Assembly (NCBI GenBank): GCA_934153675.1 | Contig: CAKPFG010000001.1 | Span: 155,947 to 219,946 of the forward strand | Reading direction: 5' to 3' | Length of the DNA stretch: 64,000 bases | DNA from: an uncultured Bacilli bacterium | GTDB lineage: Bacteria > Bacillota_I > Bacilli_A > RF39 > UBA660 | Shown: positions 42,574 to 60,574 of the stretch, one piece after another | How positions within the stretch are numbered: position 1 is the stretch's first letter | Layout of the letters: every line of letters starts with the position of its first letter | Notes under the pieces: generated by a model | Database searches by the model: none | Told to the model about the DNA's origin: nothing | Seen by the model: only the letters and a program-made list of their open reading frames with translations | Made by a program: the position numbers and the translations under genes

Positions 42574-43995
42574 TTAATATTGTATACCCCATATTACCGA
42601 ATACTTGGCCTCATTACCACAACATACACACTTACCAGTAAGCAACTCATCATCAGTAATACATCTAGATTTACAACCATTTATTTCCTTTATTTTTTCT
42701 TCGCATTCATCACAACCACAGAAATCAGCCCTTATAAACCCTGGTTGCTTATTTAAAATATTTTTTATATCATCCATATTATATGCTTTAAAAGTCAATT
42801 CTTCTCTTCTTTTCAAAGCTTTACTATACATATCATTTTGAATTGTATTAAGTAAATCTTTAGTATAATTAACAACATTATCAAAATCAGTCAAAATCTT
42901 TTCTCTTGTATCACGGCGAACAAAAGTTATTTTATTATTCTCTAAATCACGAGGCCCAATCTCTATTCTAATTGGAATACCACTAACCTCTGCTTCTGCA
43001 AATTTATATCCTGGAGATTTTTGTGATTCATCTATTTTAACCATTATATTATTTTTTGCAAGATCATCTTTTATACTTCGACACTTATCAATAACAAAAC
43101 TAGAATTTCCAATAGGTATAATAACAACACTAATAGGTGCTATTTTTGGAGGCAGAACCAACCCATAATCATCACTATGAACCATAATTAAACCTCCAAT
43201 CATCCTAGTTGTAGTACCAAATGATGATTGATAACAATATTCTAACTTATTATCTTTATTTAAAAATTTAACATCATAAGCCTTAGCAAACTTATCTCCA
43301 AAATAATGAGAAGTGCCAGATTGTAATGCTACCCCATTATACATTAAAGCCTCATTAGTAAGTGTATAAACAGCCCCAGCAAATTTTTCTTTTTCCGTTT
43401 TTCTACCAACAATCGTTGGAATAGCTAAAATATCATGAAAAAACCATTTATATACATCTATCATTTGTTTAGTTTCATTCATAGCCTCTTCTTTTGTTGC
43501 ATGAACAGTATGTCCTTCTTGCCATAAAAACTCACGACTTCTCAAAAAAGGTCTTGTTTCTTTTTCCCATCTTAATACATTGCACCACTGATTATATAAT
43601 TTAGGCAAATCTCTATATGAAGTAATATGTTTTTTATAATAATCACAAAACAAAGTTTCACTAGTAGGCCTTATACATAATCTCTCATCAAGATTTTTTT
43701 TACCACCCATAGTTACCCAAGCCACTTCCGGAGCAAAGCCATTTACCAATTCACTTTCCTTATTAAGTAAACTCTCAGGTATTAAAAGAGGCATTTGACA
43801 ATTAACATGGCCCAACTCTTTAAATTTCTTATCAAGAATTTCTTGCATACGCTCCCATATAGCATATCCAGCAGGTTCTATCGCAATACATCCTTTAACA
43901 GATGTATAATCAGCAAGCTTAGCAGCACGTACAACATCCGTATACCACTTTGCAAAATCAACGCTTCTTTTAGTAATCTGCTTATTACAACTCAT
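42574..43995 (-). CDS. proS: Proline--tRNA ligase, archaeal/eukaryote-like short form
   Basis: 473 aa class II aaRS with ProRS motifs and C-terminal zinc-binding Cys cluster (CGCDECEEK...CVCCG). Confidence 0.85.
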   Translation of the reverse strand: MSCNKQITKRSVDFAKWYTDVVRAAKLADYTSVKGCIAIEPAGYAIWERMQEILDKKFKELGHVNCQMPLLIPESLLNKESELVNGFAPEVAWVTMGGKKNLDERLCIRPTSETLFCDYYKKHITSYRDLPKLYNQWCNVLRWEKETRPFLRSREFLWQEGHTVHATKEEAMNETKQMIDVYKWFFHDILAIPTIVGRKTEKEKFAGAVYTLTNEALMYNGVALQSGTSHYFGDKFAKAYDVKFLNKDNKLEYCYQSSFGTTTRMIGGLIMVHSDDYGLVLPPKIAPISVVIIPIGNSSFVIDKCRSIKDDLAKNNIMVKIDESQKSPGYKFAEAEVSGIPIRIEIGPRDLENNKITFVRRDTREKILTDFDNVVNYTKDLLNTIQNDMYSKALKRREELTFKAYNMDDIKNILNKQPGFIRADFCGCDECEEKIKEINGCKSRCITDDELLTGKCVCCGNEAKYSVIWGIQY

Positions 43996-44186
43996 ACCAA
44001 TTGCCTCCTTAAAACTATATAAATTATATAATAAATATATAAATTTGTAAATAATAATTTATAAATAAAAAAGAAAAAAATCGCAGCAATAATTATACCA
44101 GTCTTCAATTTCTCTACCAAAAGTATAATCATCTACGATATAGTTTAGTGAAATAATACTTGTTTTCCTAACCTTTTCATTATTAA

Positions 44187-44371
44187 CCTTTGTATAAATA
44201 AAACTTTCAATAAATTATAAATCATTGAAAGTTCTTTTAAACATTAGCCAGGCTACTCCCTATATTATGAATAGCAAATCCTAATCACAGCAAAGCTATC
44301 TATCACAATAATTTGTGAACAAATTATTATAAATTATTAAGTATCATTTACAATACATTTTTAGCTTTTCT
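44187..44371. repeat. ~185-bp direct repeat, copy 1 (between proS and pilin-like gene)
   Basis: ~93% identical to 45457-45642; contains hairpin CTTTCAAT..ATTGAAAG and inverted repeat TCACAA-TAAT-TTGTGA (44303-44318). Confidence 0.8.
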
Positions 44372-44399
44372 ATTTTTTTAATTGCTGTTATCTTTTTGT

Positions 44400-45368
44400 T
44401 TAGATAGCAGTTTTTAAGAGGGTTATAACAGGGCGCACGGAGCCTGCGATGCTACCCGCATAGTTGCCATCCACGAAGCCATTGCTGTACACATTCCACA
44501 CGCTAGAAGAAGAATCTTCATATTGACTCATCGTAAAATACCAATAGTTACTATTATATACCCAACTTGGGGTTTCTCCATTTTGTGACATTTTTATTGT
44601 ACCTTGTCCATTATCGCCATATCCTAAATTATCTAATAACTCATTATATGTTATTAATCTTGCACTATAGCCGGTTTTATCCTCTTTTAGATCACTACTT
44701 TTTAATTTACTATTTGACCAAACATCTACTACTTGTTTTATGTTTGATGAATTATAACCTGGCGTACATCCTGCATCACCAACAGTTTCACAAGTATAAT
44801 AAGCAATTTTTAAATAATTATTATCATCATAAGATACTTTGTTAGCAATTTCTGTTGATGATAAATCCACTTCACCCTTTTTTAATGGTTCTGCTTTTAA
44901 TAATGTGACCGTATCACTATTCTCATCACTATTTTCTATAACATAAAAATTAATACCGTTATATGTGATTTCATCGCCTATTTTATAGGCTTTTTTTTGA
45001 AACTTACCATAGTGATACCATCCATCGCTAGTATTTTTATCTTTAACATCACTACTACCTACTTTGCATTCTGATAAGTATACACTTGAATCTTCATTTA
45101 ATAGAGAAATATTACATATAACCTCTTTACCTGAGTATTCAATTTCTAAATCACTTATGTTTGTTGGAAATTCTCCTTTATCTAGTAAGTAATTAGCTAC
45201 AGCAAGTTCTATACTTTTTCCGTATGCATCAACACTTCTTTTATTAGCTGATTCCTTAGCGTGTTTTACGATATTTAATACAATTGGGGTTACTATTAGT
45301 GCTAATATAGCTAGTATTACTAATACGGCTATTAATTCTATTAATGTAAATGCTTTTTTATTTTTCAT
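44400..45368 (-). CDS. Type IV pilin-like protein (prepilin N-terminal motif) with large C-terminal domain; 3' end unusually GC-rich
   Basis: N-terminus MKNKKAFTLIELIAVLVILAILALI; last ~100 nt of CDS (44410-44520) ~50% GC with atypical codons (GCA GGC TCC GTG CGC CCT). Confidence 0.65.
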   Translation of the reverse strand: MKNKKAFTLIELIAVLVILAILALIVTPIVLNIVKHAKESANKRSVDAYGKSIELAVANYLLDKGEFPTNISDLEIEYSGKEVICNISLLNEDSSVYLSECKVGSSDVKDKNTSDGWYHYGKFQKKAYKIGDEITYNGINFYVIENSDENSDTVTLLKAEPLKKGEVDLSSTEIANKVSYDDNNYLKIAYYTCETVGDAGCTPGYNSSNIKQVVDVWSNSKLKSSDLKEDKTGYSARLITYNELLDNLGYGDNGQGTIKMSQNGETPSWVYNSNYWYFTMSQYEDSSSSVWNVYSNGFVDGNYAGSIAGSVRPVITLLKTAI

Positions 45369-45456
45369 ATATCTTCCTACCTTATGTATTCATAATAGCA
45401 TAATTCATTGAAAAAAGCTACCACTTCAAAATAAAAAAGCGCAGTAATAATTACTA

Positions 45457-45642
45457 CCTTTGTATAAATAAAACTTTCAATAACTTATAAATTATTGAAA
45501 GTTCTTTTAAATATTAGTAAGACTACTCCCTATATTATAAATAGCAAATCGCTCATCACAGCAAAGCTATCTATCACAATAATTTGTGAACAAATTATTA
45601 TAAATTATTAAGTATCATTTACAATATATTTTTAGCTTTTCT
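45457..45642. repeat. ~185-bp direct repeat, copy 2 (upstream of pilin-like gene)
   Basis: Same hairpin and TCACAA-TAAT-TTGTGA (45574-45589) as copy 1; its distal end encodes the last 7 codons (RKAKNIL*) of the adjacent small gene. Confidence 0.8.
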
Positions 45643-45880
45643 GATATTTTCATTTAATTCATCATTACATGACTCAAAAGGAAATGCAACAGAATTTAAA
45701 TAGTCTTTCATTTTCCAATACTTATCTTCGGTTAACAAAATTCCGTTTGTACTTAATCTTGTATTAAGGCCTTTTAAATAAGCATCTTTCTGGACAACAG
45801 TGAGTAATTATCCAAGATACAATTACATCTTGTTTATGTTGTTTATGTTCACCATCTTCAATTTCATATTTTCTACTCAT
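45619..45880 (-). pseudogene. Small Cys-containing gene with apparent frameshift (MSRKYEIEDGEHKQHKQDVIVSWIITHCCPE | (K/R)DAYLKGLNTRL...NENIRKAKNIL)
   Basis: Strong RBS GGGGGGG before ATG at 45880; frame A stops after 38 codons, +1 frame continues open for 56 more codons ending inside the repeat; shift near the CCAGAAAGATG A-run. Confidence 0.35.
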
Positions 45881-48315: not shown

Positions 48316-48413
48316 ATTATCACCAGCTAAATTATAACATTTAATTTAAAATAACACAATTTGAATTTTCTTTTAATTTGTGTTATTATACGTACCTGAA
48401 AAGGGGGATATAT

Positions 48414-49451
48414 ATGAATTTGGAAAATTTAAATGGAGTACAATTATTTAATTTAATTATTAATAATAAATTACCATTAGAAAAATATATAAACAACAAA
48501 AAACAATTAATTGACCTGTTTATTAGAAATTTTAATTTATTTGATTATTATTCACTTTTGGTCTTAAAAGAAAATAATAATTTTAAAAAAGAAGTTAATG
48601 AATTATTTAGTTGTACTATTGATCATATTTTTAGTAACAAAAGTAAAATATTTTTATTTAAAATTTTTAAAGATTTACTAAATAAAAAAGTAAAAGAAGA
48701 AGATTTAATTAATTATATTTTCTTAAAATGCAAAGAAAAAGATACCATTAGTTCATCTGCTATTTTATTTGATTTATCAATATTTCAAGATTTTAATGAA
48801 GCGTTTAAAAAACTATATCCTGTATCACATTTAATAACCAAAGCATCTCAAAGATTCAATCCAGATATCATAGGTGCTGATATGTTTAAAGGAAGTTCTA
48901 TAATAGGAAAATTAATAAAAGATAATAATGAACAACTACTATTACCATATATAGATGATTATTTAAAACAAATAAATTATCAATTATCTAATTTTAAAAT
49001 GATAGGTGGAGGTGGTTCTAGTTTAGTATTTTTAGTTAACGATAAAATTTTAAAAATTGGTGAAACAAGAAATAATAGACTTGTTTATATAAATCATCGT
49101 ATTTTAATGTCAAAAATAAGAAAGTTAATAACAAGAGATGACGGTGAGGAAATATGTTATTTTGAAGTTATGAATAGAGCTATAACAGGTGATGTAACAG
49201 AAGAAGAAAGAGATGAACTTAAAAGGGATTTATTAAAACAAGGACTAAACTGGCATGATGATAAATTAGAAAATTGTGGTGTATTACAAGAGAATGATCA
49301 AAACGAACTACCAATAGGAAATAAACCAGATTGGGCAGCAGCTATTATAGATAATCCATACGAAAGAGAAAAATTTAATAAAAGGAAAAGACGTGTTGTT
49401 GTAATAGATAACGATTTTATAGATCCAAGTTATGGTAAATTATATAAATAA
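48414..49451 (+). CDS. Atypical protein-kinase-like fold protein (CotH/spore-kinase-like?) with uncharacterised N-terminal domain
   Basis: C-terminal half has G-loop IGGGGSSLVF, ILKIG lysine, catalytic-loop-like WHDDKLENCGVL and VVVIDNDFIDP (DFG-like); start MNLENLNG after AAGGGGGAT RBS. Confidence 0.4.
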   Translation: MNLENLNGVQLFNLIINNKLPLEKYINNKKQLIDLFIRNFNLFDYYSLLVLKENNNFKKEVNELFSCTIDHIFSNKSKIFLFKIFKDLLNKKVKEEDLINYIFLKCKEKDTISSSAILFDLSIFQDFNEAFKKLYPVSHLITKASQRFNPDIIGADMFKGSSIIGKLIKDNNEQLLLPYIDDYLKQINYQLSNFKMIGGGGSSLVFLVNDKILKIGETRNNRLVYINHRILMSKIRKLITRDDGEEICYFEVMNRAITGDVTEEERDELKRDLLKQGLNWHDDKLENCGVLQENDQNELPIGNKPDWAAAIIDNPYEREKFNKRKRRVVVIDNDFIDPSYGKLYK

Positions 49452-49452
49452 A

Positions 49453-49481
49453 AATACTCTCAAAATTTGAGAGTATTTTTA
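49453..49481. terminator. Bidirectional intrinsic terminator between convergent genes
   Basis: A-run TACTCTCA-aaatt-TGAGAGTA T-run. Confidence 0.55.
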
Positions 49482-49673
49482 ACTGTTTTAATATATTTTT
49501 TAAATAACTAACATTATTATTACTGAATATCCATAAGCATGCAAATACCACACATAAAAATTAGAATTTTCAGACTTTCTCATTGTCCAACATCAAGAAT
49601 TTTAGTTATATATCCATTTTTTCTCTATTACTTGATGGCACAACGGTTTCGTTTATTTTTTCATATCTTATAA

Positions 49674-60193: not shown

Positions 60194-60574
60194 TTATTCA
60201 TCAATTTTTTTATACTTTTCACATTCTTTTTCATCATCTATATAATGATAATGATATTGATTACTATAAGACTTAATACCCACACAACCTATCATTTTCT
60301 TTTTTGTAAGTGGATTAGTTAACATTGTATCAAGATAACCACTACTTACAATATCTTTTACATATATAACCTTCTCATCATTTTCTACTTTAAAATCAGA
60401 ATTCATAATATAATTTTCAGCAGAAGACAAAATCGTATTAACCTGAGATTCATAACTACTTTCTCTTGCCTTTTTTATAGAATCATTGACTGTTGGCACT
60501 AAAATAACAGAAAGAATAGAAAGTATTACTAAGATTGCCAAAAGTTCTATTAAAGTAAATGCATTTTTTTTCAT
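60194..60574 (-). CDS. Type IV pilin / ComGC-like pseudopilin
   Basis: MKKNAFTLIELLAILVILSILSVILVP N-terminal prepilin motif; 126 aa; 42 bp upstream of spoVAC. Confidence 0.6.
   Translation of the reverse strand: MKKNAFTLIELLAILVILSILSVILVPTVNDSIKKARESSYESQVNTILSSAENYIMNSDFKVENDEKVIYVKDIVSSGYLDTMLTNPLTKKKMIGCVGIKSYSNQYHYHYIDDEKECEKYKKIDE

Follow-up and report, generated by a model that had tools for sequence, protein, structure and literature searches.

The pilE and pilS copies of Neisseria share conserved 5′ and 3′ sequences and a conserved element downstream of every copy, and their variable interiors leave scope for recombination. Named variable proteins of diversity-generating retroelements (DGRs) with a C-type-lectin fold are TvpA of Treponema denticola, Mtd of a Bordetella phage, TaqVP of Thermus, and LdtA of Legionella. 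Surveys of DGRs seek a variable region (VR) adjoining a reverse transcriptase (RT), and remote targets are acknowledged as missed (PMC8144416). Pilin-type domains bearing a VR are mentioned only in passing (PMC11661182, PMC6642488); rare G-type-pilin VR carriers were noted in a published survey (PMC11661182). The locus described here lies in a 64-kb stretch of DNA (the window) from an uncultured, spore-forming gut member of the Bacilli with 24% GC, whose relatives among rumen metagenome-assembled genomes are labelled Erysipelotrichaceae. It contains a type-IV-pilin-like gene bracketed by two copies of a repeat, designated E. The gene probably encodes a modular type IV pilin with a DGR-type VR in its last ~30 codons; in the same reading, dispersed paralogues are remote targets and E is a 3′ flank or spacer shared by the family. 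The features that carry this reading are the following.

44400–45368, minus strand: modular type-IV-pilin-like gene, 322 amino acids (open reading frame, ORF; Pfam N_methyl at residues 1–26, E-value 6.7e-8)
45177–45368, minus strand: prepilin leader (MKNKKA followed by FTLIE) and hydrophobic α1 helix, within a 110-codon module
44403–44771, minus strand: C-terminal C-type-lectin (FGE/DUF1566-like) fold domain, approximately residues 200–322 (boundaries approximate, set by eye)
44430–44520, minus strand: putative DGR VR, with a 72-nt core at 44430–44501 and variable codons continuing upstream to ~44520
44421–44444, minus strand: invariant box bounding the VR on its 3′ side, GGCTCCGTGCGCCCTGTTATAACC, a candidate initiation of mutagenic homing (IMH) site; GC-rich and without adenine in its first 15 nt
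44372–44399, minus strand: conserved 28-nt post-stop flank (ACAAAAAGATAACAGMAATTAAAAAART), kept after the pilins in the window and in contigs L089, L091, L170, and L171

The encoded protein consists of an N-terminal prepilin motif with the α1 helix, a β-rich middle part, and a C-terminal domain with a C-type-lectin fold. As in type IV pilins, a class III signal peptide with an FTLIE-type motif is followed by a hydrophobic α1 segment; residue −1 is Ala, not Gly. The family profile matches solved type IV pilins over residues 1–70, and the AlphaFold model (mean pLDDT 85.5) displays a helix at residues 9–64. The C-type-lectin fold matches TvpA, Lcl_C, Mtd, and TaqVP, and the variable segment is located at the C-terminal end of this ligand-binding fold, as in DGR targets.

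The 3′ end of the gene had been described in the original prediction as ~50% GC with atypical codons, which was borne out: the last ~120 nt are the GC-richest of the 64 kb. Positions 44400–44519 have a GC content of 48.3% versus a window mean of 24.3% (sd 5.9%, z = 4.1). Only five of the 63,881 windows of 120 nt exceed this value, and at least the top five overlap the segment. The GC content at third codon positions (GC3) is 0.63 for codons −36 to −7 and 0.15 in the remaining gene. The same excess was found in 49%-identical homologues of other species (0.43–0.57 versus 0.13–0.16; L009, L012, L013, and L014) and in paralogues at other loci. Three controls behaved differently. The pilins of a pilus gene cluster on the related contig L175 share the motif YWTMS...VRPVI...KKSAI but use AT-rich codons (GC3 0.07–0.20), homologue P0012 keeps the protein motif with AT-shifted codons and diverged third positions, and a decayed fragment of this region at 49527–49616 of the window is likewise AT-rich. 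Because homologous domains in the pilus-cluster paralogues use ordinary AT-rich codons, the composition is not dictated by the protein. The original prediction had asked whether the segment is a conserved domain with the same composition in all homologues; conserved it is, but the composition differs, the L175 paralogues and P0012 being AT-rich.

For the analysis of the variation, the last 50 codons of the window gene were aligned with the allele of a strain diverged by 1% and with paralogues from four other loci. The alignment follows the pattern GTG TGG nnT GTG nnC nnC nnT GGC nnC GTG nnY nnC nnC nnT nnG nnT nnC nnC nnn nGn TnC GTG CGC CCn GTT ATA ACn. None of the 38 invariant columns of the 72-nt core is an adenine, although adenine accounts for 42% of the remaining coding strand (p ~1e-9); 10 of the 38 are T. 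The variable columns of the core are mostly at codon positions 1 and 2 (30 out of 34), where adenine is the commonest base. Between the window gene and P0002, the differences at codon positions 1, 2, and 3 amount to 10, 11, and 3 in the 22-codon segment versus 16, 10, and 25 in the other 300 codons. For P0010 and P0007, they amount to 7, 13, and 1 in the segment versus 31, 22, and 66 elsewhere (Fisher p = 7e-6). This inversion of the codon-position pattern relative to the remaining gene is seen in the pairwise comparisons with Fisher p-values of 0.004 to 7e-6. About half of the first and second positions of the VR differ between pairs but only 5–14% of the third positions, which are more alike between paralogues than third positions elsewhere in the gene. 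We therefore infer a common template from which the segments were copied once the genes had diverged, and the earlier idea that only the C-terminal coding end receives information from elsewhere was judged to be right.

The VR was surveyed at the protein level in 103 of the 120 best hits and at the DNA level in about a dozen members. The segment is unique in 98 of the 103 homologues. Lys, Glu, Gln, Met, and Trp together make up 2.6% of its residues versus 18.3% elsewhere, whereas Asn, Asp, Tyr, Ser, Gly, and His are enriched; this spectrum is the one reachable from AAY codons. Variability stops exactly at the box GG(C/T)TCCGTGCGCCC, which is free of adenine and conserved in the six compared VR sequences (1–2 variable bases). 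A search of the 64-kb window matched this box and nothing else (0 matches expected by chance). Its position and character are those of an IMH, for which it is a candidate. Downstream of it, an inverted repeat (CTGCTATCT/AGATAACAG) spans the stop codon and possibly forms a hairpin with the last codons (44385–44410). P0002 and L016 retain the GC-rich VR without this inverted repeat.

In composition and variation, the GC-rich end looks like the VR of a DGR, whether still active or a relic. In the proposed mechanism, a template repeat (TR) elsewhere in the genome would be transcribed and then reverse-transcribed by an error-prone DGR RT misreading only adenines, and the cDNA would replace the VR up to the GC-rich box. 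Scaffold residues written without adenine (GTG, GGC, TCC, CGC, and CCT) would escape mutagenesis, which would explain the codons that appeared foreign to this genome. Contact residues would derive from AAY codons and appear as NNC or NNT. The core of the TR is predicted to read GTG TGG AAT GTG AAC AAC AAT GGC AAC GTG AAY AAC AAC AAT AAG AAT AAC AAC AAN GGT TCC GTG CGC CC, and the predicted sequence runs GTGTGGAATGTGAACAACAATGGCAACGTGAAYAACAACAAT..GGTTCCGTGCGCCC. The dispersed paralogues would be the remote targets, with near-identical 5′ modules and 3′ flanks and with differing middle parts and VRs.

The pilin family comprises 2,438 homologues (hits), several per genome. Its members sit singly between unrelated housekeeping genes, for example, between mraY and rny, between dut and the PFOR gene, or next to cadC; tandem pilins adjoining mutS represent another locus. 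Three paralogues (P0001, P0029, and P0100) are located on the source contig. The paralogues are mosaics: the 5′ untranslated region (UTR) and the first ~110 codons have a DNA identity of 93–100%, the middle part contains indels and is 33–60% identical, conservation of the C-terminal domain is patchy, and the 3′ flanks share ~95% identity. Within the first 110 codons, paralogues differ at 2–4, 0–1, and 5–17 sites at codon positions 1, 2, and 3, respectively. Metagenome assemblies tend to break within this N-terminal module, which is near-identical between paralogues. No prepilin peptidase or pilus assembly machinery was found in the 64-kb window; PilC and a prepilin peptidase adjoin related pilins in L175. 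The cluster on this contig (L175:515–11999; also L176 and L177) is a type IV pilus cluster with eight pilin-like genes, PilC (T2SSF) and an A24 prepilin peptidase beside them, and an IS200-type Y1 transposase. A second stand-alone N_methyl pilin-like gene of the window (60194–60574, minus strand, 126 amino acids) adjoins spoVA genes and has no assembly genes nearby.

The surroundings of the pilin gene, including the two copies of E, comprise these features.

44186–44383, minus strand: repeat E copy A ("proS type"), between the pilin gene and the proS upstream region; contains TTGTAA-16-TATAAT (44353–44326), a 22-nt palindrome (44307–44328), and a 19-bp hairpin with T-run (44197–44238)
45456–45654, minus strand: repeat E copy B, between the small frameshifted ORF and the pilin gene; contains a promoter-like site (45624–45597), the palindrome (45578–45599), and the hairpin (45467–45508)
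45369–45458, minus strand: pilin 5′ module with a second terminator-like hairpin and T-run (~45427–45458), an extended −10 element TGCTATTAT (45392–45400), and a Shine–Dalgarno sequence
45619–45880, minus strand: small frameshifted ORF between the histidine phosphatase gene and the pilin gene, its last seven codons in E copy B
42574–43995, minus strand: proS (archaeal-type prolyl-tRNA synthetase), the downstream neighbour with its own promoter
44066–44101, minus strand: degenerate version of the second hairpin with its T-run, preceding the proS promoter (from alignments; no stable fold)

All genes around the pilin locus are on the minus strand. In the direction of transcription, the histidine phosphatase gene (46427–45903) is followed by the small frameshifted ORF (45880–45619), E copy B (45654–45456), the 88-nt pilin 5′ module, the pilin-like gene (45368–44400), the 28-nt flank, E copy A (44383–44186), ~190 nt with a strong promoter, and proS (43995–42574). 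The ~93%-identical direct repeats reported around the pilin gene are real and slightly longer than claimed: copies A and B align over 199 nt with 93.0% identity and one indel (E-value 6e-82), and no third copy was found in the 64-kb window. The second short similarity noted outside each copy could also be confirmed (44081–44101 versus 45439–45457). Beside copy B, it consists of a 7-bp hairpin followed by a T-run; beside copy A, it is degenerate, and ~100 extra nt separate it from the repeat. These ~100 nt, unique to the proS-side copy, open with a short ORF of 11 codons without proline codons behind an AAAGG box (44132–44180, minus strand; ATGAAAAGGTTAGGAAAACAAGTATTATTTCACTAA). This stretch has changed little across six proS contigs, some of which carry single-base substitutions (CAC to CAT in L005 and L006). 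The proS promoter is TTTACA-17-TATAAT at 44051–44023. The small upstream gene is frameshifted, as had been stated, and the repeat copy that contains its last seven codons is B. Its frameshift is found at the identical place in L093, a 97%-identical strain (3% apart), where 9 nt (HKQ) are also missing from the early part of the ORF. Either the ORF is a long-standing pseudogene or its frameshift is programmed. No tRNA or tmRNA gene was detected in the window as an integration site. The junction from the histidine phosphatase gene through the small ORF and copy B to the pilin start is present in two independent assemblies (L172 and L173), and the junction from the pilin 3′ end through copy A to proS in six (L001, L002, L005–L007, and L092). 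Both junctions recur in independent metagenome assemblies, so a single faulty assembly does not account for the arrangement.

Repeat E extends from AGAAAAGCTAAAAAT to the T-run after the 19-bp hairpin. In the transcribed orientation, it contains TTGTAA-16-TATAAT, a 22-nt palindrome over −10/+1, two or three small stems, and the hairpin with T-run. Copy B is 96.8% identical to the E after P0010, 95.9% to L090 (148 nt), 97.1% to L093 (749 nt including flanking sequence), and 96.9% to L089 over 287 nt (E and 5′ module), with the 139-nt transcribed part identical in the latter case. In L089, E separates two pilins in tandem: the first ends with ...VRPVITIKKSAI and a stop codon, and the 28-nt flank, E, and the 88-nt 5′ module lead on to the second. 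The genes rny and cadC come after pilin, 28-nt flank, and E in L170 and L091, respectively; overall, four loci have E behind the 28-nt post-stop flank. P0010 has the 5′ module, of which the last ~70 nt are 93% conserved, and no E upstream. In P0012, the stop codon is directly followed by the homologous hairpin and by no other part of E, which identifies the E hairpin as the terminator of the family. In L093 (6810–7547) and L090 (4774–4919), the histidine phosphatase gene, the small ORF, and E are followed by dus-lysS-His_Phos-ackA, and the order pilin, E, proS is absent; the breakpoint coincides with the end of E, and the cause is either a polymorphic rearrangement or a mis-join. Two proS contigs (L003 and L008) start inside E, and their visible part is B-like, which fits either an exchange between E copies or a pilin-less allele. 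After P0007 (L171:1364–1560), the sequence runs through the 28-nt flank and ~12 nt into E before giving way to unrelated, GC-richer sequence with a hairpin (ACAAGGG...CCCTTGT), a third kind of pilin 3′ flank. No copies of E were found in viral contigs or plasmids.

From this placement in other contigs (L089, L170, L091, P0010, P0012, L093, and L090), E is recognized as the family's 3′ flank or the spacer between its pilins; it also exists as solo copies. The original prediction of a cassette placed in a duplicated module holds in part. What does not hold is the assignment of the module to proS or to the end of the small gene, as E follows pilins before a second pilin (L089), cadC (L091), and rny (L170), and stands before dus-lysS without a pilin (L093). 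Since E sits between tandem pilins, the order E, pilin, E could arise from such an array. Recombination between E copies, by looping out and reinsertion or by unequal exchange in an array, would insert or delete a pilin unit and leave a solo E before housekeeping genes. The layout in the window fits such recombination.

The promoter-like site and the palindrome of E precede the pilin terminator and may yield a ~125-nt RNA of the 3′-UTR type; the signs that E acts as RNA are suggestive but thin. In one E stem, a G-U to U-G swap distinguishes the A and B types. Among nine copies, the 5′ half of E with the promoter-like site and the palindrome varies much less than the 3′ half (alignments read by eye). 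Pairing of an E RNA with the pilin 5′ UTR or 3′ end was considered and, judged by eye only, was unconvincing. A T-box or riboswitch upstream of proS was likewise rejected, as Rfam gave no match there at gathering thresholds or at E-values ≤ 10. In rumen relatives, the stop codon of VR-bearing pilins is followed by a ~230-nt structured RNA-like 3′ flank (L009:1165–1395, L013:4922–5165, and L011:3068–3310), and a second type is present in L012 and L014. Of the 64 predicted pairs of the first type, 22 have compensatory double changes among the three sequences; it has neither an Rfam match nor similarity to E. It is conceivable, though unlikely, that diversification has two tiers, in which recombination via the 5′ modules and E shuffles, duplicates, and deletes middle domains and a single unlinked DGR rewrites all tips. 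E and the rumen 3′ RNA would then be a new functional element tied to remote DGR targets, and E might mark targets for a trans-acting machinery or coordinate which pilin is expressed. Probably, E is an unexplained but ordinary flank element.

Several results weigh against the interpretation as pilin family served by a DGR. In the 64-kb window, there was no second VR-like copy, no second IMH-like copy, and no RT-like ORF with a YxDD motif. Around the family members in L089, L094, L170, L171, and L175 (≤10 kb on each side where the contig allowed), neither a TR nor an RT was found, and there was no RVT Pfam match. Since no TR was found in the regions searched, the adenine rule derives from the comparison of VRs with one another only. 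The VR scaffold and the IMH pattern had no match in viral contigs and GenBank phages. The post-VR hairpin is weak (DNA fold −2.9 to −3.9 kcal/mol, z = −1.0 to −2.6). Third codon positions account for four of the 34 variable columns, and A cannot be the source of a few changes (e.g., TCC/TTC). The VR is identical in L002 and L007 (~0.5% diverged) and in L001 (identical over the overlap), and strains diverged by ~1% differ at only two VR codons. Since VRs of strains 0.5–1% apart are identical or nearly so, diversification is infrequent or has ceased in the source species. For E, covariation is thin: two pairs have double changes, a number reached by 121 of 500 shuffles, and most pairs are invariant. 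E copies of one type resemble each other more closely across loci than A and B do within a genome, so that recent spread and constraint are indistinguishable here.

Further searches added little. The contigs L009–L015 contained no TR-like copy, and a strict RT motif search gave only non-RT matches there. Pilin relatives in viral contigs matched at the N-terminal helix only, which is uninformative. One ORF of the window with a YIDD motif (48378–49451, plus strand) was considered as RT and rejected, because it belongs to no Pfam family and its glycine-rich loop reads kinase-like rather than RT-like. The encoded 357-amino-acid protein has a loop (IGGGGSSLVF...KIGE) that recalls a protein-kinase-like fold. 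The ORF adjoins a decayed pilin fragment (49527–49616, minus strand; ..WTMRKSENSNFYVWYLHAYGYSVII..), an AT-rich, truncated remnant of the pilin C-terminal/VR region without an N-terminal part and with a terminator-like hairpin at ~49455–49492. The fragment resembles a defunct member of the family, with a VR decayed to the base composition of the genome.

The serious alternative to an active DGR is a relic VR. The family would once have been diversified by a DGR, RT and TR would have been lost in the source species, and the adenine-poor, GC-rich end would be an undecayed fossil. We regard this as possible but clearly the less probable course. It would account for the missing RT and TR in the window and around the other family members examined and for the near-identity of VRs between closely related strains, and decayed versions do exist in P0012 and in the fragment at 49527–49616. 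However, a GC3 of 0.63 in a genome of 24% GC is not decayed, the third positions of the VR are more alike between paralogues than those of the remaining gene, and nearly all VRs surveyed are unique. Moreover, only a small part of any one genome was visible to the search for RT and TR.

Beyond the relic VR, the DGR interpretation covers more of the evidence than the remaining explanations do. According to one of these, E is a cis-regulatory leader, a riboswitch or attenuator with promoter, ~125-nt RNA, and terminator, which controls the downstream gene including the pilin gene and proS. Ahead of pilin, proS, dus, cadC, and rny, E indeed offers a promoter-like site, a structured region, and a strong terminator, ordered and oriented as a leader requires, and all one-sided stem changes are G-U compatible on the minus strand. 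This function is nevertheless unlikely. Rfam gave no match in the window at gathering thresholds and nothing in E even at E-values ≤ 10, and the downstream genes are functionally unrelated. They also have signals of their own, namely consensus-like promoter hexamers after E before proS, dus, and cadC and the extended −10 before the pilin gene. In addition, P0010 lacks E upstream, E is contiguous with pilin 3′ ends, and P0012 has the terminator alone.

A further explanation dispenses with the retroelement and is very unlikely: an adhesin tip under ordinary diversifying selection, together with selection favouring rare codons that end in G or C (e.g., for translational pausing or mRNA structure). 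Adhesin tips are often under positive selection, and an RT was not found in the regions searched. Selection on the protein, however, leaves unexplained why the invariant columns contain no adenine and why Lys, Glu, Gln, Met, and Trp are nearly absent. The same is true of the synonymous third positions, which are frozen between paralogues differing at 21% of their other third positions.

There is even less to recommend the view of E, pilin, and E as a mobile cassette of the integron or transposon kind that recombines site-specifically at E. In favour of it, one gene is enclosed by direct repeats, and single family members lie between housekeeping genes at many loci. Yet no integrase or transposase gene lies beside any E-flanked unit, the neighbours in the window being proS, frr, His_Phos, and uvrC. 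E has no terminal inverted repeats (ends read by eye, with no search made for attC sites), its length far exceeds that of target-site duplications, and it is present on one side only in L170, L091, and L089. Least credible of all is the claim of the original prediction that the 3′ end stems from a recent horizontal transfer or from gene conversion by a GC-richer donor: the segment is the GC-richest 120 nt of the window and has atypical codons, but it is not a recent import, because the GC3 excess recurs in the 49%-identical homologues of other, AT-rich species and in dispersed paralogues, and the segment is marked instead by the avoidance of adenine at scaffold positions (the invariant bases being non-A rather than generally GC-rich) and by hypervariable codon positions 1–2 with a fixed position 3, with no similar DNA in the phages or plasmids searched.

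The family consists of at least 2,400 type-IV-pilin-like adhesins of gut and rumen Bacilli, and the members examined carry a VR-type tip. Those seen in their genomic context lie singly among housekeeping genes. If a DGR serves this family, spore-forming commensals would diversify many pilus adhesins from one template, with a bearing on host and mucus binding and on strain persistence. For AT-rich genomes in which no TR is at hand, an adenine-depleted, GC3-rich island at the 3′ end of a gene together with inverted codon-position variability is suggested as a flag for candidate orphan VRs. For annotation, the near-identical pilin modules explain the assembly breaks at these genes.

Like the pilE and pilS copies of Neisseria, the pilin copies of the family described here have conserved ends and variable interiors. 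In contrast to Neisseria, they are full-length genes with their own promoters, no silent cassettes or G-quadruplex (G4) element were seen, and the variation of the tip follows the DGR pattern and not that of segmental conversion. Small RNAs derived from 3′ UTRs share the terminator of the mRNA. E resembles them in having a promoter-like site just after the stop codon and in ending at the terminator of the gene; it differs in its weak covariation and in having no identified target. The C-type-lectin variable proteins of known DGRs are set apart from the protein described here by its type IV prepilin N-terminus. In addition, the targets are dispersed singly among housekeeping genes with no RT or TR near any target examined, and the host is extremely AT-rich (24% GC). 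As in the modular type IV pilins PilB and PilC of the monoderm Streptococcus sanguinis (PMC8179133), an adhesin or lectin module is grafted onto the C-terminus of a pilin, but here the module has a C-type-lectin fold with a VR, and many paralogues are present per genome. The DGR-diversified type V pilus adhesins of gut Bacteroides (bioRxiv 10.1101/2024.11.15.621889) are likewise an adhesive pilus component of a gut bacterium that is apparently diversified by targeted hypermutation; they belong to an unrelated pilus system, type V of Bacteroidota as opposed to the type IV system of a monoderm member of the Bacilli.

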